32,349 nucleotides of DNA. Source: a virus (Duplodnaviria; Heunggongvirae; Uroviricota; Caudoviricetes). The stretch spans positions 1 to 32,349 of IMG/VR virus record IMGVR_UViG_2917865565_000006. One strand, 5' to 3'. Below are positions 1-17,214 of this stretch, piece after piece. Made by a program: the position numbers and the translations under genes. The notes beneath the pieces are model-generated. The model was not told the origin of the DNA. It saw nothing but the letters and a program-made list of their open reading frames with translations, and searched no databases. Position 1 is the first letter of the stretch. The number at the start of each line of letters is the position of its first letter.

Positions 1-996
1 TTATGGACGCATTATGGACATTCCTGACACCGGGTTAAGAGTCACAGCATCTTGTAAGAAATCCGGTGCAAAGTGTGCGTAGGTCATAGTTTGCTGAATG
101 TCAGAATGACCCAGGATGCGCTGCAATGTGATTATGTTACCTCCATTCATTATAAAATGTGTGGCAAATGTATGCCTCAAAACATGCACTGCCTGTCCGT
201 CAGGTAAATCGGGTTTTACTTCCCTGAGAGCGTTGCGCACTTTGTAGTAACTGGCATTAAAAAGCCTGCCTGAATTTTTGGTCTTGATCCGTTTAATCAG
301 GTCCTGCGAAACGGGAATTGTCCTGCGCTTTCCGTTTTTAGTTTTCATAAACGTAACCATCTGGTTAATGATGTGTTCAGCTTTCAAATTAGACACTTCA
401 CTCCAGCGTCCACCAGTAGAAAGGCAGACCAGAGTTGCATTTAACTCATCACCATCAAGCATGGATAACAGCCGCGTAATCTCTTCACTGGACAAAAAAG
501 CCATTTCCGTAACAGCTTCACGTAACCGCTTAACCTCACGGAACGGGTTGTGAGAGTGATATTCACCGGCGTCAATTAACTTGGTGAACATCCCGCTCAT
601 TATTGCCAGATGCCGATTTACGCTGGCTGGTTTTAGACCATCGTTCATCATTACAACGCGATAATCAGTTATCGTTTTCTTTGTTAGCTGGTCCGCCCTG
701 GACACTCCCATCTCAGCAAATTTGGCGATTATTGTCGTCAAACGCCCTCGTTCAATATCTCCACGCTCATGTGATTTTCCGTGATATATCCACCATCTGC
801 CTAACAACTCTGTAAGAGTTCGGCGGTCGGCCGGCTTCTCCAACCACTCTTTGTTGTGGAAGTTAACCAGTACATGACGTTCGAATGCCTGAGCTTCACC
901 TTTAGTTTTAAATTTCCGCCTGATACGTTTTCCATCTGCACCCTGCGGTCTGACGTCCACTTCATAACGACCATCATCGAGCTTTTTAATAGACAT
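1..996 (-). CDS. int: Tyrosine integrase (P2 Int-like), 331 aa
   Basis: Minus-strand ORF at the left edge; C-terminal LRHTFAT and LGHSDIQQTMTYAH motifs match the tyrosine-recombinase catalytic signature; sits next to the C repressor as in P2. Confidence 0.9.
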   Translation of the reverse strand: MSIKKLDDGRYEVDVRPQGADGKRIRRKFKTKGEAQAFERHVLVNFHNKEWLEKPADRRTLTELLGRWWIYHGKSHERGDIERGRLTTIIAKFAEMGVSRADQLTKKTITDYRVVMMNDGLKPASVNRHLAIMSGMFTKLIDAGEYHSHNPFREVKRLREAVTEMAFLSSEEITRLLSMLDGDELNATLVCLSTGGRWSEVSNLKAEHIINQMVTFMKTKNGKRRTIPVSQDLIKRIKTKNSGRLFNASYYKVRNALREVKPDLPDGQAVHVLRHTFATHFIMNGGNIITLQRILGHSDIQQTMTYAHFAPDFLQDAVTLNPVSGMSIMRP

Positions 997-1089
997 AAAG
1001 CCCTCCGATGACGCTGTTTACTTCTACTACTTGAAAATTAATGCAATTTTCTTTCGTACATTTACTGCACACATATGCTGAATAAATCG

Positions 1090-1389
1090 TCAGCCAGTCT
1101 TTTGGTCTGAGTGGTGCAAGGTTGTTGAGTCTTGCCCAATGTGTGCGAGCGCCGGGGCTATTTGTCCGGCAGCGGGATCTGTCTCATCAAACATGAACCA
1201 GTCACGATATTTACGGAATCTTGGGTGTTTCAGAAGTCGCACTACCGCGTCATGTGAAATGGATGATTTCCCATTTTCGTACCCCACATAGGTAACGTAA
1301 TTAATACCTGTCATTTCAGCTACTTCCTTCTTCTTGAGGCGTTCAGACTCACGAATAAGTTTAAGTTTCTCACGAATCTCAATTGACAT
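1090..1389 (-). CDS. C: Immunity repressor C (P2 C family), 99 aa
   Basis: 99-aa minus-strand ORF between int and the divergent early operon; C-terminal GQIAPALAH tail as I recall for P2 C; N-terminal half appears divergent, suggesting a different immunity specificity. Confidence 0.8.
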   Translation of the reverse strand: MSIEIREKLKLIRESERLKKKEVAEMTGINYVTYVGYENGKSSISHDAVVRLLKHPRFRKYRDWFMFDETDPAAGQIAPALAHIGQDSTTLHHSDQKTG

Positions 1390-1493
1390 AATGAATCAGA
1401 TCTCTTATTTTTAATCCGTTGTGATATTCCACACCTAACTCTAGCCAACTCTAACTAGCTTTAGTTTGTGGAGCCAATTAGGAGAATAGCAAA
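1390..1493. promoter_or_regulatory. Divergent early/repressor promoter region (Pe/Pc analogue) with direct-repeat candidate operators
   Basis: 104-bp AT-rich gap between the divergent C and cox-like genes; direct repeats AACTCTA at 1437-1443 and 1447-1453 and CTAACT at 1435-1440 and 1451-1456; RBS AGGAG 9 nt before the ATG at 1494. Confidence 0.55.
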
Positions 1494-1850
1494 ATGAATG
1501 TCGGATCTGAAATTTCTGACGAGACAAGACAAGAAGTCTCAGTTCTTACAAAAGCAAAACGTCATTCAGTTAAATTGGCTGCTGTGCCTTCAGATTTGCT
1601 GTCGAAAGAGGGTTTTGCTCTTTACATAGGTAAGACACCACGCGCTGTAGCAGAAATGGCGAGAGCAGGCAAGCTCCCTGCGTTCTATATGACAGACCCA
1701 CTGAAGCCAGGGGGGAATGCTGAGTTATGGATTAATCGTCGTGAGTGGGACAAATATGCAGCTCAACTAGTCGATGAAGCTCCGACAGAATGGCATGACT
1801 GGAAGAACCGCATTAGTTATAGCAAGTCGAAATTAGGGCGTATGGTGTGA
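1494..1850 (+). CDS. Cox-like excisionase / early regulator (118 aa, longer than the 91 aa I recall for P2 Cox)
   Basis: First gene of the rightward early operon, opposite C; good RBS; GKLP..MTDP segment; assignment is by position and weak similarity only. Confidence 0.5.
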   Translation: MNVGSEISDETRQEVSVLTKAKRHSVKLAAVPSDLLSKEGFALYIGKTPRAVAEMARAGKLPAFYMTDPLKPGGNAELWINRREWDKYAAQLVDEAPTEWHDWKNRISYSKSKLGRMV

Positions 1851-1859
1851 GGGCATGTT

Positions 1860-2457
1860 ATGAACACTATAGTAGGAAACACGGCAGCTAAAAAAAATTC
1901 AATCGTTGATCATCGAGCTGCGCACGAGACTTTTGTCGATTGAAGGGCAATCTAACGTATCAGCCATAGTTGATGACATAGAAATTGAAGCGAAAAAATT
2001 AGAAGAAGAAGTTAATTTTCTGGCTTTACCTGTAAGAGCTGCAGAAATTGAGACTTTGACGCATTTAATTAAATGTGGATGTGTCAGGCTGGAAAATAAC
2101 AAAAGAGATGAACGTAATGAGATTATAAATAATTTACAAGAGTCATTTGCGTTAATCAGCCAGAATCAACATGCCCCAACTAAAACAAAAAGAAGCAAAT
2201 CAAGTAAATTTGAGGTTTTGCGTTTTGGTGATCTTTCTATTATTGGTTGCGAGCTAACCCCATTACGCAACTATGTGACTCTATACTGTAGAGCTTGTTA
2301 TGAAAATGACAGGTTTATCGGTCATGTGTACTACGGAGTATCAAAGTTATCGGGTGACGAAAAAGGTTATAGCGAATTTGATGCGCTGAGTATTATTAAT
2401 GCTGTAGAAAAATATGCGCCAGGAATGCAAAAATACTCATGGCGCAAAGTAGATTGA
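1860..2457 (+). CDS. Hypothetical protein in AT-rich moron island; probably starts at ATG 1860 and is broken by a +1 frameshift in an A8 run (1890-1897); the ORF track shows only 1906-2457
   Basis: Strong RBS GAGGG 7 nt upstream of ATG 1860; a 27-codon ORF in frame 0 becomes continuous with the 183-aa ORF if one A is removed from the A8 run (MNTIVGNTAAKK then IQSLIIELRTRLL...). No recognisable domain. Confidence 0.45.
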
Positions 2458-2459
2458 AA

Positions 2460-2666
2460 TTATTTTTCTTTATTCAGCTCTAAGTATTCGCCGATAGTAG
2501 CATGAAGATTTTTTAATTGCTCGAGTTGAATACTAATTGCAAGAACATTATCGCTTTTTAGGTTTAAGTCGGTATGAAGGTGTGCGAGTAGTCTCATCTT
2601 ACCCTCACTGACAATACCATCGATAGTGATTTTGTCTGGAAATACAGTAACAGTTTTTTTGTCCAT
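2460..2666 (-). CDS. Hypothetical small protein (68 aa from internal ATG), convergent with the upstream moron gene
   Basis: Minus-strand ORF; internal Met (MDKKTVTVFPDKITIDG...) preceded by AAGGTG RBS; the longer GTG-initiated form (to 2714) has no RBS. AT-rich. Confidence 0.45.
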   Translation of the reverse strand: MDKKTVTVFPDKITIDGIVSEGKMRLLAHLHTDLNLKSDNVLAISIQLEQLKNLHATIGEYLELNKEK

Positions 2667-2765
2667 TTTTACACCTTTTGTGGTTGGTTGTTTTTGGCGA
2701 TTCGATCTTACCACAAGACCATGTGCCGGACATGGCTAAAAACCGGCTCTGTTTCAGGAGGAGTT

Positions 2766-2936
2766 ATGCCGGAACCTCGTTGTATTGCTCAGTTATTGCG
2801 TAACGAAAGCCCAAGGGCGATTGACTTCACCATCACCCACGGTAAGGGGCGTAAGGGAATCATTATCCGCACCAAAAAACAGAGTCCGTTAAAAAAGGCT
2901 CTGACCTTTCTGAAAAGCCGGAGGGTATGGAAATGA
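2766..2936 (+). CDS. Small basic protein, orf78-like (56 aa)
   Basis: ATG at 2766 preceded by CAGGAGGAG RBS; immediately upstream of B and overlapping its start; position matches P2 orf78. Confidence 0.55.
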   Translation: MPEPRCIAQLLRNESPRAIDFTITHGKGRKGIIIRTKKQSPLKKALTFLKSRRVWK

Positions 2937-3433
2937 CAGTGATGACGCTCAATCTCGTTGAAAAACAGCCAGCAGCTATGCGCCGGATAATTGGTAAGCA
3001 TCTTGCCGTTCCTCGCTGGCAGGATACATGTGATTATTATAATCAGATGATGGAGCGCGAACGGCTAACAGTTTGCTTTCATGCGCAGTTAAAACAGCGT
3101 CACGCAACGATGCGTTTTGAAGAAATGAACGACGTCGAACGTGAACGACTGGTATGTGCAATTGATGAATTGCGTGGGGCATTCTCAAAACGTCGTCAGG
3201 TCGGTGCAAGTGAGTATGCATATATTAGTTTTTTAACAGTCAGTCAGCGCCGTACTTTATTTATGCATGCCGGATTGACTGAAAAAGAATTCAACCAGCC
3301 ATACTGGCGAATTAATGAAGAGTCATGTTACTGGCGTGATGCTTTATTCCGTGCATTACGTGAATTATTCAGTCTGTTTGAGTATGCACCGACAATTCTG
3401 ACGTCGGTAAAACCAGAGCAATATCTGCATTAA
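2933..3433 (+). CDS. B: Replication protein B (P2 gpB-like, 166 aa)
   Basis: Position in the early operon between cox/orf78 and orf80-83/A; length from the second ATG (2933) equals the 166 aa I recall for P2 B. Confidence 0.7.
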   Translation: MTVMTLNLVEKQPAAMRRIIGKHLAVPRWQDTCDYYNQMMERERLTVCFHAQLKQRHATMRFEEMNDVERERLVCAIDELRGAFSKRRQVGASEYAYISFLTVSQRRTLFMHAGLTEKEFNQPYWRINEESCYWRDALFRALRELFSLFEYAPTILTSVKPEQYLH

Positions 3434-3496
3434 GTAATTAACCAGAGTTTTTAACGCACTTAATCGTGCGGGGCTTCTTTTTGCCTGGAGAAAGTT

Positions 3497-3721
3497 ATGC
3501 ATACAGTTTCTGAAAATCAGTGCGGTAAATACGCATTACTGCTGCAACAGGCCAGAACCGAAGCACAGGCCGACGCTGCGACGCGCTTTTCTTCTCATCT
3601 TGATGCCATGATTCGCCACATCACAAAGGCGGAGTTATCCCGCGTGGAGATAGTCGAGCTGCTCAGTCAGGAGTCGGAAAAATTTCACAATATCGGATTG
3701 TCTCGCGGGGAGGTGCTTTGA
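3497..3721 (+). CDS. Early-operon hypothetical protein (orf80-like, 74 aa)
   Basis: ORF with GGAGAAAG RBS; stop overlaps the next start; synteny with the P2 orf80-83 cluster. Confidence 0.6.
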
Positions 3722-4023
3722 TGTCCTGTTCTCGTTCAGTTGTATTACTGAATAACGCCTTAAAAATCGCCGTTATGAAAAATGGCGATTTGTCTCTTAT
3801 TCAACTTGGTCTTGATAAAGAAAAACGCGAAATAACTGAGTCTGTTATCGCGATTTATCAGAACGAATTAAACCTCCTGTCTGATGTGGTCAATTTACTT
3901 GTTAAACGCGCTGTGTTTCACAAGCAAATCTCCTCCGTGGATGAACTGACGAAATTAACGACAGAAATCGCCAGCTATTGCGCTGATGAATTTAAAAACC
4001 TTAACGACAAAAGGAACTGGTAA
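3718..4023 (+). CDS. Early-operon hypothetical protein (orf81-like, 101 aa)
   Basis: Translationally coupled ORF (ATGA overlap with upstream gene) in the early operon. Confidence 0.6.
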
Positions 4024-4247
4024 TGCCGGACAACGTAGATTTTATTCAGGAACAACAGGCTGAATTACTGGAGCGCCAGATTAACGCGGCAAGGGTAAAA
4101 CATTGCGGTGCTTCTGCGCTGGTTTGCGAAGAGTGTGACGCGCCAATACCTGCTGCCCGTCGTGCAGCTTATCCGTCAGCCACGCGTTGTGTTTCCTGCC
4201 AGTCAGTCTTTGAAGCAAAAAACAAGCATTACCGGAGAATGGCATGA
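4023..4247 (+). CDS. TraR/DksA-family C4 zinc-finger protein (orf82-like, 74 aa)
   Basis: CEEC...16 aa...CVSC four-cysteine motif typical of TraR/DksA-type zinc fingers; coupled to neighbouring genes. Confidence 0.7.
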   Translation: MPDNVDFIQEQQAELLERQINAARVKHCGASALVCEECDAPIPAARRAAYPSATRCVSCQSVFEAKNKHYRRMA

Positions 4248-4519
4248 GTATTCGTATCGAAATTGGCGAACGTTATGTCGTTACCAGTGACAGCTTTCAG
4301 TTTATTCTCCACGAGAAAAAGAGAGCGGAAAGCGGTAAAAACGCTGGTCAGGAATGGCTGGCGGTGGTTGGTTATTACCCGAAATTAAGCCAGCTCGTTT
4401 CCGGCCTGATGCATCACGATATTCTGACCGGAAACGCAAAATCTTTTGCTGATTTAAACGCGCAGGTTGAGCAACTCAGCAAGCGTTGTTCAGAGGCTTT
4501 TGGCTCATATGGCCGTTAA
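4244..4519 (+). CDS. Early-operon hypothetical protein (orf83-like, 91 aa)
   Basis: ORF overlapping the start of A; position matches P2 orf83. Confidence 0.6.
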   Translation: MSIRIEIGERYVVTSDSFQFILHEKKRAESGKNAGQEWLAVVGYYPKLSQLVSGLMHHDILTGNAKSFADLNAQVEQLSKRCSEAFGSYGR

Positions 4520-6791
4520 AGCCTCCGGGCGTTTTGTCCCTCCGTCAGCATTTGCCGCAGGCACCGGTAAGGCGTTTACCGGTGCTTATGCATGGAACGC
4601 GCCACGCGAGGCCGTCGGGCGCGAAAGACCCCTTACACGTGACGAGATGCGTCAGGTGCAAGGTGTTTTATCCACGATTAACCGCCTGCCTTACTTTTTG
4701 CGCTCGCTGTTTACTTCACGCTATGACTACATCCGGCGCAATAAAAGCCCGGTGCACGGGTTTTATTTCCTCACATCCACTTTTCAGCGTCGTTTATGGC
4801 CGCGCATTGAGCGTGTGAATCAGCGCCATGAAATGAACACCGACGCGTCGTTGCTGTTTCTGGCAGAGCGTGACCACTATGCGCGCCTGCCGGGAATGAA
4901 TGACAAGGAGCTGAAAAAGTTTGCTGCCCGTATCTCATCGCAGCTTTTCATGATGTATGAGGAACTCTGCGATGCCTGGGTGGATGCGCATGGCGAAAAA
5001 GAATCGCTGTTTACGGATGAGGCGCAGGCACATCTGTATGGTCATGTTGCTGGCGCTGCACGTGCTTTCAATATTTCCCCGCTTTACTGGAAAAAATACC
5101 GTAAAGGGCAGATGACCACGAGGCAGGCATATTCTGCTATTGCCCGCCTGTTTAACGATGAGTGGTGGACTCATCAGCTTAAAGGCCAGCGTATGCGCTG
5201 GCATGAGGCGTTACTGATTGCTGTCGGGGAGGTCAATAAAGACCGTTCTCCTTATGCCAGTAAACATGCCATTCGTGATGTGCGTGCGCGCCGCCAGGCA
5301 AATCTGGAATTTCTTAAATCGTGTGACCTCGAAAACAGGGAAACCGGCGAGCGCATCGACCTTATCAGTAAGGTGATGGGCAGTATTTCTAATCCTGAAA
5401 TTCGCCGGATGGAGCTGATGAACACCATCGCCGGTATTGAGCGTTACGCCGCTGCAGAGGGTGATGTGGGGATGTTTATCACGCTGACCGCGCCGTCAAA
5501 GTATCACCCGACACGTCAGGTCGGAAAAGGCGAAAGTAAAACCGTCCAGCTAAATCACGGCTGGAACGATGAGGCATTTAATCCAAAGGATGCGCAGCGT
5601 TATCTCTGCCATATCTGGAGCCTGATGCGCACGGCATTCAAGGATAATGATTTACAGGTCTACGGTTTGCGTGTCGTCGAGCCACACCACGACGGAACGC
5701 CGCACTGGCATATGATGCTTTTTTGTAATCCACGCCAGCGTAACCAGATTATTGAAATCATGCGTCGCTACGCGCTCAAAGAGGATGGCGACGAAAGAGG
5801 AGCTGCGCGAAACCGTTTTCAGGCAAAACACCTTAACCGGGGCGGTGCTGCGGGATATATCGCGAAATACATTTCAAAAAACATCGACGGCTATGCACTG
5901 GATGGTCAGCTCGATAACGATACCGGCAGGCCGCTGAAAGACACTGCCGCGGCTGTTACCGCATGGGCGTCAACGTGGCGTATTCCGCAATTTAAAACTG
6001 TTGGCCTGCCGACAATGGGGGCTTACCGTGAACTACGCAAATTACCTCGCGGCGTCAGCATTGCTGATGAGTTTGACGAACGCGTCGAGGCTGCACGCGC
6101 TGCCGCAGACAGTGGCGATTTTGCGCTGTATATCAGCGCGCAGGGTGGGGCAAATGTCCCGCGCGATTGTCAGACTGTCAGGGTCGCCCGTAGTCCGTCG
6201 GATGACGTTAACGAGTACGAGGAAGAAGTCGAGAGAGTGGTCGGCATTTACGCACCGCATCTCGGCGCACGTCATATTCATATCACCAGAACGACGGACT
6301 GGCGCATTGTTCCGAAAGTGCCGGTCGTTGAGCCTTTGACTTTAAAAAGCGGCATCGCCGCGCCTCGGAGTCCTGTCAATAACTGTGGAAAGCTCACCGG
6401 CGGTGATACTTCGTTACCGGCTCCCACACCGACTGAGCATGCTGCAGCGGTGTTAAATTTAATAGATGAAGGGATTCTAAGTTGGACCGAGCCAGGCATT
6501 ATGAAGGTACTTAGAGACTTATTGAGTAATGAACTGAAATGCAGTAATCGTTCACAGCAGAGCTTTACCCCTTTCATTGGTCGAAGCTACTTTCCTGCCC
6601 CATCCGCCCGGTTGACAAGGCAGGAGAGAAAGACTATCCCGAAAATTAAGGTTCTTCTTGCACAAAGTGACATTCAGGCTAGTTATTGGGAGCTTGAAGC
6701 TCTCGCTCGCGGAGCTGTTTTGGATTTTGGGCATAAGCGTTTTAAATTTGATAACGATATCGACTTTTTTGACAGACAGCGTGAGTGGTAG
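4509..6791 (+). CDS. A: Replication initiation endonuclease gpA (rolling-circle initiator), 760 aa from ATG 4509
   Basis: Large ORF at the end of the early operon; HWHMMLF metal-binding motif; length from 4509 is within one residue of the 761 aa I recall for P2 A. The ORF-track start at 4467 is probably an in-frame extension. Confidence 0.9.
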   Translation: MAVKASGRFVPPSAFAAGTGKAFTGAYAWNAPREAVGRERPLTRDEMRQVQGVLSTINRLPYFLRSLFTSRYDYIRRNKSPVHGFYFLTSTFQRRLWPRIERVNQRHEMNTDASLLFLAERDHYARLPGMNDKELKKFAARISSQLFMMYEELCDAWVDAHGEKESLFTDEAQAHLYGHVAGAARAFNISPLYWKKYRKGQMTTRQAYSAIARLFNDEWWTHQLKGQRMRWHEALLIAVGEVNKDRSPYASKHAIRDVRARRQANLEFLKSCDLENRETGERIDLISKVMGSISNPEIRRMELMNTIAGIERYAAAEGDVGMFITLTAPSKYHPTRQVGKGESKTVQLNHGWNDEAFNPKDAQRYLCHIWSLMRTAFKDNDLQVYGLRVVEPHHDGTPHWHMMLFCNPRQRNQIIEIMRRYALKEDGDERGAARNRFQAKHLNRGGAAGYIAKYISKNIDGYALDGQLDNDTGRPLKDTAAAVTAWASTWRIPQFKTVGLPTMGAYRELRKLPRGVSIADEFDERVEAARAAADSGDFALYISAQGGANVPRDCQTVRVARSPSDDVNEYEEEVERVVGIYAPHLGARHIHITRTTDWRIVPKVPVVEPLTLKSGIAAPRSPVNNCGKLTGGDTSLPAPTPTEHAAAVLNLIDEGILSWTEPGIMKVLRDLLSNELKCSNRSQQSFTPFIGRSYFPAPSARLTRQERKTIPKIKVLLAQSDIQASYWELEALARGAVLDFGHKRFKFDNDIDFFDRQREW

Positions 6792-6880
6792 TTGAAAAAA
6801 ACGGTCAAACGGGGTAACAATATGTTATTGTTGAGGAATTGTTTGTTATGGTTTAATTTTTATACACGGCAGAAAAGCAT

Positions 6881-8106
6881 ATGAGCATGGTTGAATGGAT
6901 AAGCCACGAGAAAAAAGATAGCCTGATACTATTTGTACATGGATTAAATGGTGGTTTGGAAACATGGAACTTTAATAAAGAAACTTCATTTCCAAAACTA
7001 TTAGCAGAAGATGAAGACATTAGCAATGTATTTGATATTGCATGTTTCAATTATTTCACCAAATTTACACAAACGTATGCTAAAAACGTCAGGATTATTG
7101 GCTCGTATTTTCTCTAAGAAAAATAAGTTAGAGAGAAATTTACCAACTGATGAAATAGCTGAGTTATTGTATACTGAGATTAGGGTAACGCTAAGTGATT
7201 ACTCTCGAATTATAATAATCGCCCATAGTATGGGGGGGTTAATATCAAAAAATCTAATTCTAAAAAAAGTTGAGCATGAGGAACAATCTAATATAATTGG
7301 ATTCATTTCGTTAGCAGTCCCTCACTTTGGTGCTAAATTAGCGAATATAACTTCAATGGTATCTTCAAATGCTCAGTTAGTAGATCTTGGATTGTTAAGT
7401 GAAGCGACTGATACATTGAATAGGCGCTGGATAAATTGTAGCAAAAAACTTCCTATCACTAGATATGTTTATGGTTCTCATGACACTATAGTTGATAAAA
7501 AAAAGTGCATTACCGATGGATAGTGAACGAAATAACTCAATTGCAGTTAATGAAGGGCATAGCTCAATTTGCAAGCCCGAAAACAGCTCGTCTACAGTGT
7601 TTGTTGCGGTAAAGCAATTTATTCAGCAGATAAATTTAGAAGCACCCAAGAAGATATGCGTTGAGCGTTTTTCTGATGAGAAACAATATGATAATGAGTA
7701 TTTCGTCTTAAAAATGATTGTCGCAGATATACATCAGGATATCGCTATGCATGCAAAGGAATATTATTATAATGCTGAGCTTGCGAGAAATATTTTTACG
7801 AGTGATTACGATAGGAAACTACTTGGTCATTTGTATTCTAAAATAAGGGAGATTTACCAGGAAGAGTATGAGCAATACATCGCGAATTCAATTTCCCCAG
7901 ATAAATTTATTGCTGCTGTTCATAGACGAATAGCCCAGGAGGATAAGTCGTCGTTAGATTCTCTTATAAAAAGTTTAGAAACGATACATAAGAAAGGAAT
8001 GTTGCATCAACTGGCTAACAAAAATGACAGGGATATTGTCTGGTCATCCGAAACCAGCGTAGAAACTTTGGAGCAATTACGGCGAGGTAATCATGAAGAA
8101 AAATAA
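6881..8106 (+). CDS. Alpha/beta-hydrolase (lipase/esterase-like) candidate defense effector with C-terminal helical domain; reading frame broken twice (three ORF-track pieces 6881-7117, 7011-7523, 7492-8106)
   Basis: Oxyanion-hole motif LILFVHGLNGG (about 6935-6955), nucleophile elbow AHSMGG (Ser codon 7227-7229) and candidate His in EGHSSICKP lie in three different frames; pieces join if one A is removed from the A5 run at 7082-7086 and from the A8 run at 7497-7504. AT-rich, unlike the backbone. Confidence 0.6.
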
Positions 8107-8606
8107 CTTGCCGTATATTCCTCTTGATGAAGAGTATAGCTTGAATTTTGCTATACTTGCCATTGCTATATCTATATTATCTCATAGCAAAAAAGGAGTG
8201 TTATCATTAGATATTAATAAAATACAAATTTTTTATGTATCTGATAAAAAACCCATCAAAAATAGATTATGCTCTTACAGTTTCGGGGAAAAAACCTGCT
8301 TGTGTCGAGTCCCAGTTAACTTATACAATAAAGAGTTTTTCATCAAATGTAGATATCTTATTCGACAATTCCAAAGTGAAATATCTTATAAAAATTATGT
8401 CATTGCGGGGATTGCTCTCAGCTGAGAAAAAAAATAATGAGAGTGTTAAATTATTTTTATCTGAAAAAGGTAAGGAATTTGCTAGCTCATTGACTGATGG
8501 ATATTTTAAAGAAATAAAACGACTATCCGAAGCATTGTTACCGCTACAAGCATTGCCTACATCTAAGTTAAACTCTGTTATAAATCAAGTCTTCAAGGAG
8601 AAATGA
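8093..8606 (+). CDS. Small middle component of the candidate three-gene system (about 170 aa), frame broken once (pieces 8093-8425 and 8235-8606)
   Basis: Start ATG 8093 with GAGGT RBS overlaps the hydrolase stop; stop overlaps the ATPase start (ATGATGA at 8603); two overlapping ORFs in different frames joinable at an A6 run (about 8246-8300). No recognisable domain. Confidence 0.5.
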
Positions 8607-10574
8607 TGAAATCATATCTCAATATCAATAGTTTGATTCTTGTTGGCGTTCGTAAAAACTACGTCACTACTTTTTATAAAGGTCTCAATGTTATCTACGG
8701 AGACTCTGACACAGGTAAGTCAAGCATTCTGGAGTTTATTAATTATCTTTTAGGTGCTAGCTCTATAGATTTAGCAGATGAAATAAAAACATCAGTAAAC
8801 TATGCTGCTCTTGAAGTAGTGATCAATGATACTGTATTCACAATCGTAAGAGATATCTATGATCATAAAAAAGCAATAGAAGTTTATCGTTGTAAGTTTG
8901 ATGATTTACATAAACATTTTCCGAAAAAATACGCTCCTAATTATAGCCCCTTATCAAATGTTGATGGTGTTTTTTCGGAGTTTTTACTTGATAGTCTTAA
9001 TTTTCCAAAGATTGAAATTAAGGTGTCTCCTTCTAAAGCTCATTCACAGATGCGCAGGTTAAGTTTTAGAAATATATATAAATTTGTTTATGTAAGTCAG
9101 GATGATATTGGTAGTAAATCTTTCTTGCGATTGGGTGATTGGTCCCGCTACGCATTTACGAAAGAAGTTTTTAAATACATGTTCAATGTGTTGGATGAAA
9201 GCATCGCCAGACTCCAAGGTGAAATATCTGCAAAAAGTAGTTTAGTAACTGAATTAAATAAGAAGTATCAGATAATATCTGAATTTCTTCGCGATACAGA
9301 CTATGAAACAATTGAATCAATTGATGATGAGATTAATAGGATAGATCTTGTTTTAGAAGAACTTGTTGCAGGTTTGTCTGCTCTCGATAAAAATATGAAA
9401 GCGGATTCCATGCAGTATACAGAATTGAAAGATGCTCACAATTTTATTTCGCTTAAATACAAAGAGTGCATATTAAATATTAGTGCGCTTGAGGATAAGA
9501 TTGATAAATATTCGCGGTTAAAAAATGACTATGATAATGATATTGAAAAACTCAAAGCGATTAAAACAGCAAATTCTCGCATTGGTGTATTGGATAAGGA
9601 AGTATTTTCCTGTCCAATCTGTGATAGCCACATTAAAATAGATGATTCTGATTTTCCATTTGAAATTTCATCAGAAAAAGATCTTAATGAAGAGTTGAAT
9701 TCACTTAGTCGACGTAGACGAAATATTAATGACATGATCTCAGAAATGTCATTTAAATTAAAAAAAGAATCAGGTTATAAAAAAAGAATTAGATGAACGA
9801 CTTGACGAGTTGAGAGAGTTGATTGACGAAGAAAGCCAGTCAATGATTACACCATTCTTGACTCAGAGAGATTTTTATATTAAAGAGATATCAAAAAATG
9901 AGAAAGTTAGGGAGCAGTTAGTAAAAGATTTGAAGGTTAGAAACCAGCAAGAGGAACTGCTTGAAAAGTATCAGGTACTGAGAAAAGATATTGAAGCATT
10001 AACTGAACGCTTGGAGGCGTTAAAGAAAAACGCACCTAGCATGGAGGGCATTTTACAAGGTTTAGGTGATAGATTTAGTCAGTATTTGAAGGGTATTAAT
10101 ATCAAAAACAGAACGGGGATAAAAATCTCTGAAAGCTATTACATTCCTGTTATAAGAGAAAAAGAATATTTTAAAATAACGTCCGGAGGTTTGAGAACTA
10201 TTTCTTCTATTGGGTATCTTTTGTCTATTCTTGATTATGCAATAGATCATAATGTTAACCATCCTTTACTTTTGATATTTGATACGGTTGGCAAATATTT
10301 AGGGAAACAGACCAAGGAAAAATATTCAAAAGAAACTCTTGCAGTCGAGGATGACCTTGAGGGAATGTCAGATCCGATGAAGTATCAAAATATTTATGAA
10401 CAACTATTGAATACAGTTCAAAAAGCAGAAAGAAAAAATGTTCCGTGCCAGATTATATTAGTTGATAATGATTTGCCTAATTCGTTTTCTACTGGTGAAC
10501 TTTCGAATATTATCGCTCATTATAGCTCGGTTGGTGAGGACGGTTTGCCTTTAGGTTTAATTGATGACCTTTAA
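8603..10574 (+). CDS. Rad50/SMC-like ABC ATPase with coiled coil and CxxC zinc hook (about 657 aa if joined); frame broken once (pieces 8603-9796 and 9810-10574)
   Basis: N-terminal Walker A GDSDTGKSS, Q-loop-like VYVSQDD, long charged helical region, CPICDSH (9611-9631), then in the next ORF the signature-like TSGGLRTIS and Walker B LLLIFD; frame 0 is open from 9762 and joins if one A is removed from the A7 run 9779-9785. Confidence 0.65.
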
Positions 10575-10703
10575 TACTATACATGCATTTTTTTGAATTA
10601 GATTGCATGTGGATAATGAGTCTATTTAGTGAAGGGAGGGTTTTGTGAGACGAGACTTTCGATAAAAATGCAACCGCATTAAAACCGCCCCATGAAGCGG
10701 GCG

Positions 10704-10722
10704 GGCGAGGCGGGGAAAGCAC
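10704..10722. other. Candidate cos cohesive-end site (GGCGAGGCGGGGAAAGCAC) within a GC-rich packaging region
   Basis: 19-nt string matches the P2 cohesive-end sequence as I recall it; lies between the last rightward cargo gene and the minus-strand Q-P terminase/portal genes, where cos sits on the P2 map. Confidence 0.55.
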
Positions 10723-10863
10723 TGCGCGCTGGCGGTGGTGCTGATTTTATTTTTTCAGCGTCTGAGCGCGTCGTGACGGCGTTTAGATTGTGCGCCGGGG
10801 CGTTGGGTGTCTGCGGGCTGTTTTGTGCGGTGGTGAGCGTGTGAGGGCGTGATGGCGGGTTGT

Positions 10864-10885
10864 AAAAAAGCCGCCCGCAGGCGGC
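10864..10885 (-). terminator. Rho-independent terminator downstream of Q (minus strand)
   Basis: On the minus strand GCCGCC-TGCG-GGCGGC hairpin followed by T6, starting about 5 nt after the Q stop codon. Confidence 0.7.
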
Positions 10886-10890
10886 GATGT

Positions 10891-11880
10891 TCAGCCGTTG
10901 TCAGTGTCCAGTGAGTAGTTTTTAAAGCGGATGACCTCCTGACTGAGCCAGCCGTTTATTTCCCGAATCCTGTCCTGTAACGGGATAAGCTCATTGCGGA
11001 CAAAGACCTTTGCCACTTTCTCAATATCACCCAGCGACCCGACGTTCTCCGGCTTGCCCCCCATCAACTGAAAGGGGATGCGGTGCGCGTCCAGCAGGTC
11101 AGCGGCGCTGGCTTTTTTGATATTAAAAAAATCGTCCTTCGTTGCCACTTCACTGAGCGGGATAATTTTAATGCCGTCGGCTTTCCCCTGTGGGGCATAG
11201 AGAAACAGATTTTTAAAGTTATTGCGGCCTTTCGACTTAACCATGTTTTCGCGAAGCATTTCGATATCGTTGCGATCCTGCACGGCATCGGTGACGTACA
11301 TGATGTATCCGGCATGTGCGCCGTTTTCGTAATACTTGCGGCGGAACAGCGTGGCCGACTCATTCAGCCAGGCAGAGTTAAGGGCGCTGAGATATTCCGG
11401 CAGGCCGTACAGCTCCTGATTAATATCCGGCTCCAGCAGGTGAAACACTGAGCCGGGCGTGAAAGGTGTCGGCTCGTTGAAGGACGGCACCCACCAGTAA
11501 ACATCCTCCTCCACACCACGGCGGGTATATTTTGCCGGTGAGGTTTCCAGTCTGATGACCTTACCGGTGGTGCTGTATCGCTTTTCCAGAAACGCATTAC
11601 CGAACACCAGAAAATCCAGCACAAAGCGGCTGAAATCCTGTTGCGAAAGCCACGGATGCGGGATAAATGTCGAGGCCAGAATATTACGTTTGACGTAAAT
11701 CGGTGAGCTGTGATGCACGGCAGCACGCAGGCTTTTTGCCAGACCGGTAAAGCTGACCGGTGGCTCATACCATCTGCCGTTACTGATGCACTCGACGTAA
11801 TCCAGAATGTCACGGCGGTCGAGTACCGGCACCGGCTCACCAAAGGTGAATGCCTCCATTTTCGGGGCGCTGGCGGTCAT
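10891..11880 (-). CDS. Q: Portal protein gpQ (329 aa as called; P2 Q is about 344 aa from memory)
   Basis: Minus-strand ORF adjacent to cos and upstream of the large terminase, as in P2; N-terminus may be mis-called (see finding on the T8 run at 11881-11888). Confidence 0.85.
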   Translation of the reverse strand: MTASAPKMEAFTFGEPVPVLDRRDILDYVECISNGRWYEPPVSFTGLAKSLRAAVHHSSPIYVKRNILASTFIPHPWLSQQDFSRFVLDFLVFGNAFLEKRYSTTGKVIRLETSPAKYTRRGVEEDVYWWVPSFNEPTPFTPGSVFHLLEPDINQELYGLPEYLSALNSAWLNESATLFRRKYYENGAHAGYIMYVTDAVQDRNDIEMLRENMVKSKGRNNFKNLFLYAPQGKADGIKIIPLSEVATKDDFFNIKKASAADLLDAHRIPFQLMGGKPENVGSLGDIEKVAKVFVRNELIPLQDRIREINGWLSQEVIRFKNYSLDTDNG

Positions 11881-11925
11881 TTTTTTTTGCCGCAGGTCGC
11901 GGTGTTTTCCCTTTTTTCTTGCTCA

Positions 11926-13698
11926 TCAGTAAAACTCCAGAATGGTGGATGTCAGCGGGGTGCTGATACCGGCAGTGAGTGGCTCATTTAACAGGGCGTG
12001 CATGGTCGCCCAGGCGAGGTCGGCGTGGCTGGCTTCCTCGCTGCGGCTGGCCTCATAGGTGGCGCTGCGTCCGCTGCTGGTCATGGTCTTGCGGATAGCC
12101 ATAAACGAGCTGGTGATGTCGGTGGCGCTGACGTCATATTCCAGACAGCCACGACGGATAACGTCTTTTGCCTTGAGCACCATTGCGGTTTTCATTTCCG
12201 GCGTGTAGCGGATGTCGCGCGCGGCGGGATAGAACGAGCGCACGAGCTGGAACACGCCGACACCGAGGCCGGTGGCATCAATACCGATGTATTCGACGTT
12301 ATATTTTTCGGTGAGTTTGCGGATGGATTCCGCCTGGGTGGCAAAGTCCATGCCTTTCCACTGATGGCGCTCAAGTATTCTGAATTTGCCACCGGCCACC
12401 ACCGGCGGTGCCAGCACCACGCATCCGGCACTGTCGCCACGGTGTGACGGGTCGTAACCAATCCATACCGGGCGGGAGCCGAACGGATTCGCGGCAAACG
12501 GCGCATAGTCTTCCCATTCTTCCAGCGTGTCGACCATGCAGCGTTGCAGCTCCTCGAACGGGAATACCGACGCCTTGTCGTCAACAAATTCACACATGAA
12601 CAGGTTTTTAAAATCGTCGGCGCTGTTTTCACGTTTGAGCTGCTCAATGTCGAACAGCGTGCAGCCACCTTTCAGGGCGTCCTCAATGGTGACAATCTGC
12701 CGCCACTGGCCGTCCGCACAGAGAAGACCTCCGGCAAGGGCGTTATGACTGACGTCGATTTCCACGCGTTCGGCGGCGCTGGCGCGTCCCCGGTTGAACA
12801 GTTCACCCGACCAGAACGGGTAGGCGTCGTGCGCCAGCGTGGACGGGGTGGAGAAATAGGTCGAGCGCAGGTGACTCTGTGAGGCCATACCTGATGCCAC
12901 CTTACGCAGTACCTGAAAATTCGGGATCCAGAAAATCTCGTCGACGTACAGGTCGCCGTTATGGCTCTGTGCGGTGTTGGAGTTGGTGCCGAGAAAAATC
13001 AGTTTTGCGCCGTTATTGCCCAGGACAATCGGGTCACCGGTCAGGTCAACGTCAACCAGCCGGGCAAAGGCGATGATGTATTCACGGAACACATACGCCT
13101 GCGTTTTACTGGCCGACAGAAAAATCTGGTTATGACCGGTTTTCAGGGCGCGCAGCAGCGCCTCGCGGGAAAAATAAAACGTCGCGCCAATCTGGCGGGA
13201 TTTCAGGATATCGCGGATGCGGTGCTCAAGCCCGGCACGATACCAGTGCAACTGATAGTCGAAAGACTGCTCAAAGAAAATCTGCTCCAGCTTTTCGATG
13301 GCCTCGTCACTGAAAAAATTCTTTTTCGGTTTGCGCCGTCCGCCTTTGTTGCGGTTAGCGACGTTCGGATTAAGGTCTGCCTCGTTGCCGGTCTGACTGT
13401 AGCGGTTGACCCGTGCCAGTCGTTCAATCTGGCGTCCGAGCAGGTCAATTTCCTTGAAGTCACCACCGGTTTTCTGCGGTTTGATGATGAGCTGGGTCAG
13501 CCGCGCTTCCAGACTCATTTCGACACGGCTGATGGGGGCAACGCTGTCCCAGCCGTCGCGTTGTTTCCAGCTCTGCACCGTCGGGCGTTTCATCTGCAAC
13601 ATGGCGGCAATCTGCGGTACGGAAAACCCCTGCCAGTACAGCAGCGCCGCCTGACGACGCGGGTCGTGTAAAAGAGTGGTGTCTGTGGTGATGGTCAT
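11926..13698 (-). CDS. P: Terminase large (ATPase) subunit gpP, 590 aa from ATG at 13698
   Basis: Minus-strand ORF next to Q; start at MTITTDTT with GAGGT RBS gives 590 aa, equal to P2 P as I recall; N-terminal HTH-like region. Confidence 0.9.
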   Translation of the reverse strand: MTITTDTTLLHDPRRQAALLYWQGFSVPQIAAMLQMKRPTVQSWKQRDGWDSVAPISRVEMSLEARLTQLIIKPQKTGGDFKEIDLLGRQIERLARVNRYSQTGNEADLNPNVANRNKGGRRKPKKNFFSDEAIEKLEQIFFEQSFDYQLHWYRAGLEHRIRDILKSRQIGATFYFSREALLRALKTGHNQIFLSASKTQAYVFREYIIAFARLVDVDLTGDPIVLGNNGAKLIFLGTNSNTAQSHNGDLYVDEIFWIPNFQVLRKVASGMASQSHLRSTYFSTPSTLAHDAYPFWSGELFNRGRASAAERVEIDVSHNALAGGLLCADGQWRQIVTIEDALKGGCTLFDIEQLKRENSADDFKNLFMCEFVDDKASVFPFEELQRCMVDTLEEWEDYAPFAANPFGSRPVWIGYDPSHRGDSAGCVVLAPPVVAGGKFRILERHQWKGMDFATQAESIRKLTEKYNVEYIGIDATGLGVGVFQLVRSFYPAARDIRYTPEMKTAMVLKAKDVIRRGCLEYDVSATDITSSFMAIRKTMTSSGRSATYEASRSEEASHADLAWATMHALLNEPLTAGISTPLTSTILEFY

Positions 13699-13871
13699 GA
13701 ATACCTCGCCGTGATGAATACACGGCAAGGCTACTGAGTCGCGCCCCGCGATTCGCTAAGGTGCTGTTGTGTCAGTGATAAGCCATCCGGGACTGATGGC
13801 GGAGGATGCGTATCGTCGGGAAACTGATGCCGACATGTGACTCCTCTAATCACTATTCAGGACTCCTGACA

Positions 13872-14726
13872 ATGGCAAAAAAAGTCTCAAAATTCTTTCG
13901 TATCGGCGTTGAGGGTGACACCTGTGACGGGCGTGTCATCAGTGCGCAGGATATTCAGGAAATGGCCGAAACCTTTGACCCGCGTGTCTATGGTTGCCGC
14001 ATTAACCTGGAACATCTGCGCGGCATCCTGCCTGACGGTATTTTTAAACGTTATGGCGATGTGGCCGAACTGAAGGCCGAAAAGATTGATGACGATTCGG
14101 CGCTGAAAGGCAAATGGGCGCTGTTTGCGAAAATCACCCCGACCGATGACCTTATCGCGATGAACAAGGCCGCGCAGAAGGTCTACACCTCAATGGAAAT
14201 TCAGCCGAACTTTGCCAATACCGGCAAATGTTATCTGGTGGGTCTGGCCGTCACCGATGACCCGGCGAGCCTCGGCACGGAATACCTGGAATTCTGCCGC
14301 ACGGCAAAACACAACCCTCTGAACCGCTTCAAATTAAGCCCTGAAAACCTGATTTCAGTGGCAACGCCCGTTGAGCTGGAATTTGAAGACCTGCCTGAAA
14401 CCGTGTTCACCGCCCTGACCGAAAAGGTGAAATCCATTTTTGGCCGCAAACAGGCCAGCGATGACGCCCGTCTGAATGACGTGCATGAAGCGGTGACCGC
14501 TGTTGCTGAACATGTGCAGGAAAAACTGAGCGCCACTGAGCAGCGCCTCGCAGAGATGGAAACCGCCTTTTCCGCACTTAAGCAGGAGGTGACTGACAGG
14601 ACGGATGAAACCAGTCAGGCATTCACCCGCCTGAAAAACAGTCTCGACCACACCGAAAGTCTGACCCAGCAGCGCCGCAGCAAGGCCACCGGCGGTGGCG
14701 GTGACGCCCTGATGACGAACTGCTGA
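13872..14726 (+). CDS. O: Capsid scaffolding protein gpO (284 aa)
   Basis: First gene of the rightward late operon, divergent from P; start at MAKKVSKFF gives 284 aa as in P2 O. Confidence 0.9.
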   Translation: MAKKVSKFFRIGVEGDTCDGRVISAQDIQEMAETFDPRVYGCRINLEHLRGILPDGIFKRYGDVAELKAEKIDDDSALKGKWALFAKITPTDDLIAMNKAAQKVYTSMEIQPNFANTGKCYLVGLAVTDDPASLGTEYLEFCRTAKHNPLNRFKLSPENLISVATPVELEFEDLPETVFTALTEKVKSIFGRKQASDDARLNDVHEAVTAVAEHVQEKLSATEQRLAEMETAFSALKQEVTDRTDETSQAFTRLKNSLDHTESLTQQRRSKATGGGGDALMTNC

Positions 14727-14784
14727 CTGGCGTCAGTCAGTCCGGGAAAACCTTCACGATTAACCCTTAATTTCAGGAAAAACT

Positions 14785-15858
14785 ATGCGCCAGGAAACCC
14801 GCTTTAAATTTAATGCCTACCTGTCCCGTGTTGCCGAACTGAACGGCATCGACGCCGGTGATGTGTCGAAAAAATTCACCGTTGAACCGTCGGTCACCCA
14901 GACCCTGATGAACACCATGCAGGAGTCCTCTGATTTTCTGACCCGCATCAACATTGTGCCGGTCAGCGAAATGAAAGGGGAAAAAATTGGTATCGGTGTC
15001 ACCGGCTCCATCGCCAGCACCACCGACACCGCCGGTGGCACCGAGCGTCAGCCGAAGGACTTCTCGAAGCTGGCGTCTAACAAGTACGAATGCGACCAGA
15101 TTAACTTCGATTTTTATATCCGCTACAAAACGCTTGACCTGTGGGCGCGTTATCAGGATTTCCAGCTCCGTATCCGTAACGCCATTATCAAACGCCAGTC
15201 CCTTGATTTCATCATGGCCGGTTTTAACGGCGTGAAGCGTGCCGAAACCTCTGACCGCAGCAGCAATCCGATGCTGCAGGATGTGGCGGTCGGCTGGCTG
15301 CAGAAATACCGCAATGAAGCCCCGGCGCGCGTGATGAGCAAGGTCACTGACGAGGAAGGCCGCACCACCTCTGAGGTTATCCGCGTGGGTAAGGGCGGTG
15401 ATTATGCCAGCCTTGATGCACTGGTGATGGATGCGACCAACAACCTGATTGAACCGTGGTATCAGGAAGACCCTGATCTTGTGGTGATTGTGGGACGTCA
15501 GCTACTGGCGGACAAGTATTTCCCCATCGTTAACAAGGAGCAGGACAACAGCGAAATGCTGGCCGCTGACGTCATCATCAGCCAGAAACGCATCGGTAAC
15601 CTGCCGGCGGTACGCGTCCCGTACTTCCCGGCGGATGCGATGCTCATCACGAAGCTGGAAAACCTGTCCATCTACTACATGGATGACAGCCATCGCCGCG
15701 TGATTGAGGAAAACCCGAAACTCGACCGCGTGGAGAACTACGAGTCAATGAACATTGATTACGTGGTGGAAGACTACGCCGCCGGTTGTCTGGTGGAAAA
15801 AATTAAGGTCGGTGATTTCTCCACACCGGCTAAGGCGACCGCAGAGCCGGGAGCGTAA
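14785..15858 (+). CDS. N: Major capsid protein gpN (357 aa)
   Basis: Position after O and length equal to P2 N. Confidence 0.9.
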   Translation: MRQETRFKFNAYLSRVAELNGIDAGDVSKKFTVEPSVTQTLMNTMQESSDFLTRINIVPVSEMKGEKIGIGVTGSIASTTDTAGGTERQPKDFSKLASNKYECDQINFDFYIRYKTLDLWARYQDFQLRIRNAIIKRQSLDFIMAGFNGVKRAETSDRSSNPMLQDVAVGWLQKYRNEAPARVMSKVTDEEGRTTSEVIRVGKGGDYASLDALVMDATNNLIEPWYQEDPDLVVIVGRQLLADKYFPIVNKEQDNSEMLAADVIISQKRIGNLPAVRVPYFPADAMLITKLENLSIYYMDDSHRRVIEENPKLDRVENYESMNIDYVVEDYAAGCLVEKIKVGDFSTPAKATAEPGA

Positions 15859-15861
15859 CCG

Positions 15862-16605
15862 ATGACGAGTCCCGCACAGCGCCACATGATGCGGGTCTCG
15901 GCAGCGATGACCGCGCAGCGGGAAGCCGCCCCGCTGCGACATGCAACTGTCTATGAGCAGATGCTGGTTAAGCTCGCCGCAGACCAGCGCACACTGAAAG
16001 CGATTTATTCAAAAGAGCTGAAGGCCGCGAAAAAACGCGAACTGCTGCCGTTCTGGTTGCCGTGGGTGAACGGCGTGCTGGAGCAGGGCAAAGGTGCACA
16101 GGATGACATTCTGATGACAGTCATGCTGTGGCGTCTGGATACCGGCGATATTGCCGGTGCGCTGGAGATTGCCCGTTATGCCCTGAAGTACGGCCTGACC
16201 ATGCCGGGTAAACACCGCCGCACCCCGCCGTACATGTTCACCGAGGAGGTGGCGCTCGCGGCCATGCGCGCCCACGCTGCCGGTGAGTCTGTGGATCCCC
16301 GCCTGCTGACGGACACCCTCGAACTGACCGCCATGGCTGACATGCCTGATGAAGTGCGCGCAAAGCTGCATAAAATCACCGGTCTGTTTCTGCGTGACGG
16401 TGGTGATGCCGCCGGTGCGCTGGCGCACCTGCAACGTGCGACACAGCTCGACTGTCAGGCCGGCGTCAAAAAAGAGATTGAACGACTGGAGCGGGAGCTG
16501 AAACCGAAGCCGGATCCGCAGCCCAAAGCAGCGCCCCGCGCCCCGCGTAAGACCCGGAGCGTGACACCGGCAAAACGTGGACGCCCGAAAAAGAAAGCCA
16601 GTTAA
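15862..16605 (+). CDS. M: Terminase small (endonuclease) subunit gpM (247 aa)
   Basis: Position after N; length equals P2 M; basic proline/lysine-rich C-terminus. Confidence 0.85.
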   Translation: MTSPAQRHMMRVSAAMTAQREAAPLRHATVYEQMLVKLAADQRTLKAIYSKELKAAKKRELLPFWLPWVNGVLEQGKGAQDDILMTVMLWRLDTGDIAGALEIARYALKYGLTMPGKHRRTPPYMFTEEVALAAMRAHAAGESVDPRLLTDTLELTAMADMPDEVRAKLHKITGLFLRDGGDAAGALAHLQRATQLDCQAGVKKEIERLERELKPKPDPQPKAAPRAPRKTRSVTPAKRGRPKKKAS

Positions 16606-16704
16606 CAACCGAATGCGCCCCGCGCCAGGGCGGCACGCCGGTCAGTGAGGGTGAATCACCTGACGCTGTACCGGCGTCCACCGCCCGACTTTTCAGAGGT
16701 AGTC

Positions 16705-17214
16705 ATGATGACGCTGATTATTCCGCGAAAGGAGGCTCCCGTGTCCGGTGAGGGTACGGTGGTCATCCCGCAACCGGCAGGCGACGAGCCGGTGATTAAA
16801 AACACGTTCTTTTTTCCCGATATCGACCCGAAGCGCGTCCGGGAACGTATGCGCCTTGAGCAGACCGTCGCCCCCGCCCGTCTGCGTGAGGCCATCAAGT
16901 CAGGCATGGCGGAGACCAATGCGGAGCTGTACGAGTACCGCGAACAGAAAATTGCCGCCGGTTTTACGCGTCTGGCGGACGTCCCGGCGGACGACATCGA
17001 CGGTGAAAACATCAAAGTTTTTTACTACGAGCGCGCCGTGTGTGCGATGGCGACCGCGTCGCTTTATGAGCGTTATCGTGGCGTGGATGCCAGTGCGAAA
17101 GGCGACAAGAAGGTTGACAGCATTGACAGCACCATTGATGAGCTGTGGCGGGATATGCGCTGGGCAGTGGCGCGCATCCAGGACAAGCCGCGCTGCATCG
17201 TGAGTCAAATCTGA
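16705..17214 (+). CDS. L: Head completion/stabilisation protein gpL (169 aa from ATG 16705)
   Basis: AGAGG RBS before ATG 16705; that start gives 169 aa as in P2 L; the ORF-track start at 16645 is an in-frame extension. Confidence 0.85.
   Translation: MMTLIIPRKEAPVSGEGTVVIPQPAGDEPVIKNTFFFPDIDPKRVRERMRLEQTVAPARLREAIKSGMAETNAELYEYREQKIAAGFTRLADVPADDIDGENIKVFYYERAVCAMATASLYERYRGVDASAKGDKKVDSIDSTIDELWRDMRWAVARIQDKPRCIVSQI

Follow-up and report, generated by a model that had tools for sequence, protein, structure and literature searches.

Six frame breaks in a Lamassu-carrying P2-like prophage of Escherichia sp. E2562 are almost certainly homopolymer errors of an Ion Torrent-only draft

The window analyzed in this study, a stretch of 32,349 nucleotides taken as a whole, comes from contig PDIJ01000007.1 of Escherichia sp. 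(cryptic clade II) strain E2562, assembly GCA_004745205.1, with which it shares 16,791 identical bases and equally fragmented gene calls. It contains a P2-like prophage in which an AT-rich cargo of three genes (about 32% GC, vs about 55% GC in the backbone) is placed between the replication gene A and the portal gene Q, and in which a further AT-rich moron gene lies between cox and the early genes. The coordinates of these genes and of the six homopolymer runs at which their reading frames are broken are collected in Table 1. The position of the cargo is the same as that of the A-Q hotspot of P2-like phages, where P2 itself carries tin/old, and is in no way unusual; at this place, relatives whose terminase protein is identical have different cargo, its domains including GmrSD plus HEPN, AAA_13 and HipA/HIRAN. 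The terminase protein is itself very widespread among prophages.

Table 1. Genes with interrupted reading frames and the homopolymer runs that interrupt them (positions in the window)
Feature	Position	Strand	Remarks
Moron gene, AT-rich, between cox and early genes	1860..2457	+	198 aa after deleting one A; intact 198-aa protein in relatives
A8 run, moron gene	1890..1897	+	True length A7; A7 in three base-aligned copies, including both Logan contigs
LmuA, Lamassu/ABC-3C effector	6881..8106	+	407 aa corrected; three ORFs in window; annotated intact in relatives
A5 run, LmuA	7082..7086	+	True length A4, from base-level comparison with intact copies
A8 run, LmuA	7497..7504	+	True length A7, from base-level comparison with intact copies
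LmuC, ABC-3C middle component 4	8093..8606	+	170 aa corrected; ORFs of 110 and 123 aa in window
T6 run, LmuC (actual break of the middle gene)	8229..8234	+	True length T5, from base-level comparison with intact copies
LmuB, SMC/Rad50-like ATPase	8606..10574	+	655 aa corrected; ORFs of 396 and 254 aa in window
A7 run, LmuB	9779..9785	+	True length A6 in this allele, from base-level comparison
Portal gene Q, P2 backbone, essential	10891..11926	-	344 aa corrected; out of frame beyond codon 15 in window, where the remaining 329-aa ORF starts at an internal ATG
T9 run (+ strand; A9 on coding strand), portal gene Q	11880..11888	-	True length 8; sixth over-called base

Once the frames are restored, the cargo is, as far as domain content and gene order tell, a Lamassu (ABC-3C) system of a known type with a predicted role in anti-phage defense. 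In relatives the genes follow the order LmuA-LmuC-LmuB with overlapping ends. LmuA combines an N-terminal alpha/beta-hydrolase of the lipase type (DUF676/PGAP1/Abhydrolase_1, residues 10-208; PF05057 at 2e-09) with a C-terminal CTD8 domain (PF20284 at 1.4e-35, residues 265-389), and matches the PADLOC model of LmuA at 3.6e-109. LmuC is recognized both by PF20290 (MC4, 1.1e-26) and by the corresponding PADLOC model (2.4e-52), while LmuB matches its PADLOC model over the full length (3.9e-235) and the Pfam family AAA_23, shows weak SMC/Rad50 matches in its coiled-coil region, and bears GDSDTGKS at residue 32 as its Walker A motif and CPIC at residue 336 as its CxxC hook. The N-terminal fragment of LmuB in the window is 397 aa long, but the source annotation begins at the second Met, which gives 396 aa. 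The three overlapping genes, their order, the effector with CTD8, the MC4 component and the ATPase with Walker A and CxxC motifs are all shared with the short Lamassu/ABC-3C type that has a lipase-like LmuA effector. In contrast, the effector that has been studied structurally is the Cap4 nuclease, in place of which an alpha/beta-hydrolase (DUF676/PGAP1-like) is found here; published models of Cap4-type systems propose that LmuB and LmuC detect DNA ends or intermediates of replication and release LmuA (bioRxiv 10.1101/2025.04.02.646746).

The exact 198-aa protein of the moron gene occurs on 16 contigs, and neither this protein nor its convergent 68-aa neighbor had a match in Pfam, PADLOC, PHROGs or NCBIfam. 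Gene D of the backbone is intact, as had been read from the window before, although its A7 run lies at 31480-31486 and not at 31481-31487.

An earlier, sequence-only reading of this DNA had proposed at least five frame breaks, each explained by one extra A and all confined to the AT-rich cargo genes. Over the 28.3 kb that could be compared we found six extra bases. The four runs it had placed at 1890-1897, 7082-7086, 7497-7504 and 9779-9785 are present with the lengths it gave, and deletion of a single A rejoins the moron gene (198 aa), the hydrolase (407 aa) and the ATPase (655/656 aa), yielding products that match proteins annotated as intact in other genomes. The middle gene behaves differently: its break had been sought in an A6 run near 8246-8300, but alignment to intact copies at base level locates the surplus base, a T, in the run at 8229-8234 (T6 vs T5). 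Deleting an A at 8246, 8258, 8289 or 8390 also produces a 170-aa ORF, but one with the wrong local residues. The confinement to the cargo did not hold either, since the portal gene is hit as well, at a T9 run (11880-11888) whose true length is T8, beyond the stretch in which breaks had been reported.

That reading had recommended re-sequencing and a comparison with the same prophage in related genomes, and public data offer both. The genes are in frame in two Logan assemblies and in a second assembly of E2562. The reference-free Logan contig SRR8835204_21 covers positions 1-16796 and 20886-32349 of the window (28.3 kb) and differs from it by no substitution and by six single-base insertions, all in the window. 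A second reference-free contig, SRR6148323_78, can be aligned over 11.9 kb, again with no substitution and with only the first five insertions, and it stops exactly at the sixth run, the T8 of the portal gene. All six differences from these otherwise identical copies are gains of one base, and all fall in A/T homopolymers. In the second E2562 assembly, GCA_005781075.1 (VATM01, locus tags FEK43_), exact protein-sequence matches show the proteins of 407, 170, 655 and 344 aa to be intact. They sit on the 423,630-bp contig VATM01000004.1 as TLI83717.1, TLI83716.1 (LmuC), TLI84022.1 (LmuB) and TLI83715.1 (portal); the matches across the cargo are at the protein level, and the late region of the contig is base-identical to the window. 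A literature search on VATM01 and E2562 found no report of the platform used for this assembly. Conversely, an exact protein search found the fragments of 170, 123, 396, 183 and 329 aa, the last being the truncated portal protein TGC19353.1, solely on the 110,502-bp PDIJ contig.

The same cargo occurs in 96 complete genomes of E. coli, O157:H7 and E. coli B among them, and is at least 99% identical in 84 of the 96; a search of a phage collection gave no near match to it. Among the 60 of these genomes that were listed, the cargo alignment spans 3797 nt in 56, vs 3801 nt in the window, and 58 have three intact annotated Lamassu genes. The run lengths of the window recur in none of the four complete genomes for which a base-level alignment was made. 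More generally, we observed no tract-length polymorphism: every base-aligned copy that spans a given tract has the in-frame length (n = 6 for the cargo, n = 3 for the moron gene and n = 2 for the portal gene). O157-type alleles read AAAAAGG at the run at 9779.

In flow-based sequencing, a homopolymer gives a single signal, and the number of bases has to be derived from the strength of that signal. The platform reported for PDIJ00000000 (E2562) is Ion Torrent only, with single-end reads of 35-400 bp at 50x coverage, assembled with MIRA and SPAdes (PMC6639607); on this platform long homopolymers are miscounted and coverage is biased on extremely AT-rich DNA (PMC3431227). We conclude that the six frame breaks are almost certainly consensus errors of the draft GCA_004745205.1. 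The systematic over-calling of homopolymers already suspected from the uniform direction of the breaks is thus borne out by the Ion Torrent-only source, by the intact proteins in the second E2562 assembly, and by identical prophage copies that differ solely at the runs. Because the genes are intact both in the second E2562 assembly and in independent assemblies of the prophage, the frame breaks represent an ordinary sequencing artifact. Under this explanation, the MIRA/SPAdes consensus would have retained a surplus base in each of six A/T runs whose true lengths range from 4 to 8, and the over-call itself may have arisen at either the base-calling or the consensus step. By this reading E2562 carries an intact P2-like prophage, an intact three-gene Lamassu system and an intact 198-aa gene beside cox.

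The relation of the errors to run length favors this explanation. Their rate climbs with true run length, from 1 in 229 runs of A4/T4 through 1 in 113 runs of five bases and 1 in 47 of six, to 2 in 10 of seven and 1 in 2 of eight. A point against it is that the errors are clustered and not uniform: five of the six lie in the two AT-rich cargo segments, which are rich in such runs, and one in the portal gene, and neither the 5.5-kb chromosomal flank nor the final 20 kb of the window contains any. After conditioning on run length, the excess in AT-rich segments is only mildly non-random (P about 0.026), and the bias toward the cargo is mostly a matter of homopolymer density; what remains of it we attribute, more tentatively, to biased coverage or quality on AT-rich DNA, and poorer Ion Torrent coverage of these segments may have contributed to the errors. 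The indel errors known from flow-based platforms (Ion Torrent PGM, 454) have in common with those described here single-base changes in homopolymers, a lack of substitutions, a rise with run length, ORFs that are split and database entries for spurious 'partial' proteins. They differ in two respects: Ion Torrent data contain both over- and under-calls, whereas here there are six over-calls and no under-call, and the errors fall together within 12 kb that is AT-rich or borders on AT-rich sequence and are not spread evenly.

The sequence-only reading had kept genuine inactivation and slipped-strand switching as live alternatives, which the Ion Torrent-only source and the intact copies make very unlikely. 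If the genes were truly pseudogenes, six +1 slippage mutations would have inactivated the Lamassu system, the moron gene and the portal gene in the isolate used for the first assembly. There is some precedent for this, as AT-rich defense cargo, which can be toxic, is inactivated in some cases, and copies of this cargo elsewhere have breaks of their own, namely a 2-bp TG duplication in LmuC of REL606 and a G7 instead of G8 in LmuA of O157:H7 E32511. However, six indels without a single substitution in 28 kb, relative to otherwise identical copies, form an unnatural mutation spectrum; all genes are intact, by exact protein matches, in the second assembly that bears the name of this strain, the fragments are confined to one contig, and the draft was produced on the platform best known for such errors. 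The fact that the portal gene was hit likewise also argues against the selective silencing of a toxic defense system, and we regard true gene decay as very improbable. An origin in a mismatch-repair-deficient mutator was considered and rejected in view of the lack of substitutions.

A related possibility is that the tracts were heterogeneous in length in culture and that the consensus caught the OFF (+1) state at each of them by slipped-strand phase variation. Tracts of A7-A8 can slip in vivo, and the end of SRR6148323_78 exactly at the portal T8 run indicates that run-length calls were ambiguous in those reads, but the sequencing chemistry alone would be expected to make reads ambiguous across homopolymers. 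The window shares with phase-variable contingency loci the presence of frame-determining A/T tracts within coding sequences, and departs from them in the lack of tract polymorphism among relatives, in the shortness of some tracts, and in the involvement of an essential phage gene. The tracts are invariant in all four base-aligned relatives, in agreement with the equal cargo length of 56 of the 60 listed complete genomes; A4 and T5 are too short for contingency tracts, and it is improbable that six independent loci were all caught OFF. Phase variation at all six sites is therefore, in our judgment, an exceedingly unlikely account. The narrower proposal that only the longer tracts (A7 at 1890 and 7497, A6 at 9779 and T8 at 11880) are truly heterogeneous in E2562 cultures, with a +1 subpopulation captured in the draft, deserves very little credence too; if it were true, this heterogeneity would amount to slipped-strand ON/OFF switching of the prophage-borne Lamassu system and of the viability of the prophage.

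Programmed ribosomal or transcriptional frameshifting, in which poly-A slippage would restore full-length products from out-of-frame genes, can be practically dismissed: transcriptional slippage can occur on poly-A tracts of 7 to 9 bases and P2 does have a programmed frameshift in its tail genes E/E', but the defining sign of recoding is a conserved out-of-frame arrangement, and this was absent in the homologs and identical prophage copies compared, which encode each gene in a single frame.

With the six breaks read as consensus errors, the biological importance of the finding is small, as the prophage is intact and an ordinary one of the P2-like kind, and its Lamassu system is of a known type. 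The finding carries a caution nonetheless, in that AT-rich defense cargo can look pseudogenized in drafts based on Ion Torrent data only. The resulting fragments are now separate database entries, such as WP_240783007.1 ('GPI inositol-deacylase'), WP_240783009.1 ('ATP-binding protein') and the 329-aa portal protein noted above, and a filter on sequencing platform is advisable in surveys of the decay or phase variation of defense systems.

The window is a P2-like prophage whose frame breaks are not a real biological feature. The homopolymer runs named in the sequence-only reading are present, and deleting one A at 1890, 7082, 7497 or 9779 fuses adjacent ORFs, as that reading had observed; the fused products are a protein of 198 aa, a hydrolase of 407 aa and an ATPase of 655/656 aa. 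The break in the middle gene cannot be placed from sequence alone, because several different single-A deletions yield its 170-aa ORF. Base-level alignment with relatives identifies the four extra bases of the cargo as A at 7082, A at 7497, T at 8229 and A at 9779, and therefore places this break in a T run (T6 in the window versus T5 in relatives) and not in the A runs that had been proposed. The AT-rich moron near cox is intact in E. coli 90-3040, where it encodes 198 aa and has A7 versus A8 in the window. When the late region was aligned with a prophage of 97% identity, a sixth single-base insertion came to light in a T run of portal gene Q, outside the span (1860-10574) given in the sequence-only reading. 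It shifts the frame after codon 15, so that the remaining ORF begins at an internal ATG and encodes 329 aa, the form in which the source annotation calls the portal. There are thus six breaks rather than five, and since one affects a backbone gene, the claim that they were confined to the cargo is wrong. Gene D is intact, as claimed, and its exact protein is found on 17 contigs; its A7 run had been placed one base too far to the right (31481-31487).

The same prophage, with intact genes, is found in two Logan assemblies. Contig SRR8835204_21 matches window positions 1-16796 and 20886-32349 (approximately 28.3 kb in total) and shows no substitution; it departs from the window at just six sites (1890, 7082, 7497, 8229, 9779 and 11880), at each of which the window has one base more. 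The first five are shared by contig SRR6148323_78, whose 3' end coincides with the T8 run of portal gene Q (equivalent to window 11887), which fits ambiguous run-length calls in its underlying reads. Over 5.5 kb of chromosomal flank, the window's source contig and both Logan assemblies show no difference.

Four contigs were found to carry a gpA protein identical to the window's, and PDIJ01000007.1 (NCBI GCA_004745205.1) is identical to the window across 16,791 bases, with gene calls fragmented in the same way (78, 170, 196, 123, 396 and 251 aa, plus the 329-aa portal). The strain behind PDIJ00000000 is E2562 of Escherichia cryptic clade II; it was sequenced only by single-end Ion Torrent (35-400 bp, 50x), with MIRA and SPAdes as the assemblers (PMC6639607). 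A second NCBI assembly of E2562, GCA_005781075.1 (VATM01, locus tags FEK43_), was identified by exact-sequence look-up on a 423,630-bp contig. Its late region is base-identical to the window, and exact protein matches give, at the protein level, intact versions of 407, 170, 655 and 344 aa; records of the fragments are confined to the 110,502-bp PDIJ contig, and several of the fragments persist as E2562 database proteins.

Errors become more frequent as true run length grows, from about 0.4% for runs of 4 through 0.9% (5), 2% (6) and 20% (7) to 1 of 2 for runs of 8. Even when run length is conditioned on, the placement of five of the six errors in AT-rich segments is mildly unexpected (P about 0.026). 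Long homopolymers are miscounted by Ion Torrent, whose coverage is also biased on extremely AT-rich DNA (PMC3431227), and a milder effect of this kind, at 32% GC, may account for the excess in the cargo. No assembly other than the Ion Torrent-only one has the six +1 homopolymer changes, which come with no substitution: the second E2562 assembly lacks them, as judged by protein matches, as do identical copies elsewhere. One of the six falls in an essential phage gene, portal Q. This combination is characteristic of run-length miscalls by flow chemistry that have passed into the consensus, and the Ion Torrent-only source, the Logan copies and the intact second assembly support the homopolymer artefact preferred earlier. 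Real pseudogenisation of the broken genes, phase variation at the runs and programmed frameshifting were also considered, and all three are at odds with a spectrum that contains no substitutions, with the intact VATM01 proteins of the same strain, with the lack of tract polymorphism in relatives and with homologues that are all in-frame.

Comparison with the same prophage in related genomes, suggested in the sequence-only reading, found intact genes and, in copies aligned at base level, in-frame run lengths at the break sites. Complete E. coli genomes with the cargo number 96; most are O157:H7, E. coli B is also among them, and in 84 the identity to the window is at least 99%. Among the matches listed, the alignment spans 3797 nt versus the window's 3801 in 56 of 60 genomes, and 58 of 60 carry three intact annotated genes ('ABC-three component system protein', 'middle component 4', 'AAA family ATPase'). 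Other genomes have breaks of their own in this system, real or technical, none at the window's break sites: a 2-bp TG duplication splits LmuC in E. coli B REL606 (about 1592-2106 of its locus), and LmuA is split in O157:H7 E32511 (382-1604 of its locus), where the G run of window 7232-7239 is G7 and not G8. PHROGs families match the LmuB halves separately (phrog_21162, 395 aa; phrog_18263, 254 aa), with the split point as in the window, so reference libraries already contain split versions that come from some other genome; phrog_20993 (130 aa) matches the LmuA N-terminus only.

The prophage is integrated with pflA on its left and pflB-focA-ycaO on its right (1-5492 of locus L006, from the source contig; 11783-21164 of locus L009, from the VATM01 contig), which splits the pflB-pflA neighbourhood. 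A related prophage also adjoins pflA in E. coli 90-3040.

Features of the prophage and of related loci (window coordinates unless stated)
Feature	Position	Strand	Remark
Integrase	1-996	minus	
Repressor C, cox, AT-rich moron, early genes	right of integrase, in that order		
Module between cox and early genes	1860-2666		36% GC
Replication gene A	4509-6791		
Cargo block	6881-10574		AT-rich, ~32% GC
LmuA	6881-8106		corrected
LmuB	8606-10574		corrected
Portal Q, terminase P, remaining late genes through D, ogr	right of cargo		
Portal gene Q	10891-11926	minus	
T9 run in portal gene Q	11880-11888		true T8
A7 run in gene D	31480-31486		
E2562 database fragments	7011-7523, 8235-8606, 8606-9796, 1906-2457, 10891-11880		WP_240783007.1 ('GPI inositol-deacylase'), TGC19352.1 / WP_135406308.1, WP_240783009.1 ('ATP-binding protein'), TGC19343.1, TGC19353.1
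Other A-Q inserts, loci L018-L027	about 12.8-16 kb of each locus		between portal and gene A

The cargo encodes a Lamassu/ABC-3C system. In LmuA, a DUF676/PGAP1-like alpha/beta-hydrolase is joined to a CTD8 domain; LmuC is the middle component (MC4), and LmuB is an SMC/Rad50-like ATPase with a Walker A motif (GDSDTGKS) and a CxxC hook (CPIC). For Cap4-type Lamassu, it has been proposed that LmuB/LmuC detect DNA ends or intermediates of phage replication and release LmuA (bioRxiv 10.1101/2025.04.02.646746); in contrast, the putative effector in the window is of the hydrolase type. The A-Q interval is the P2 cargo position, and relatives whose terminase protein is identical to the window's have many very different inserts in it, including GmrSD with HEPN and a DNA methylase, AAA_13, AAA_21/AAA_15, HipA/HIRAN with an Rv2179c-like protein, FRG and ParB_N. 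GC content dips to 0.41 at 25001-25750, the junction of the tail-fibre assembly and sheath genes, which is the Z/fun position of P2; the window has only a 130-nt gap at this position, and the related loci L010-L012 and L017 have a resolvase/invertase gene there. The module between cox and the early genes comprises the 198-aa ORF and a convergent 68-aa ORF, neither of which matched a family in Pfam, PADLOC, PHROGs or NCBIfam. In Escherichia and Shigella, 16 contigs encode exactly the 198-aa protein; its 90% cluster also includes Salmonella, and the module may represent a third cargo position in P2-like phages.
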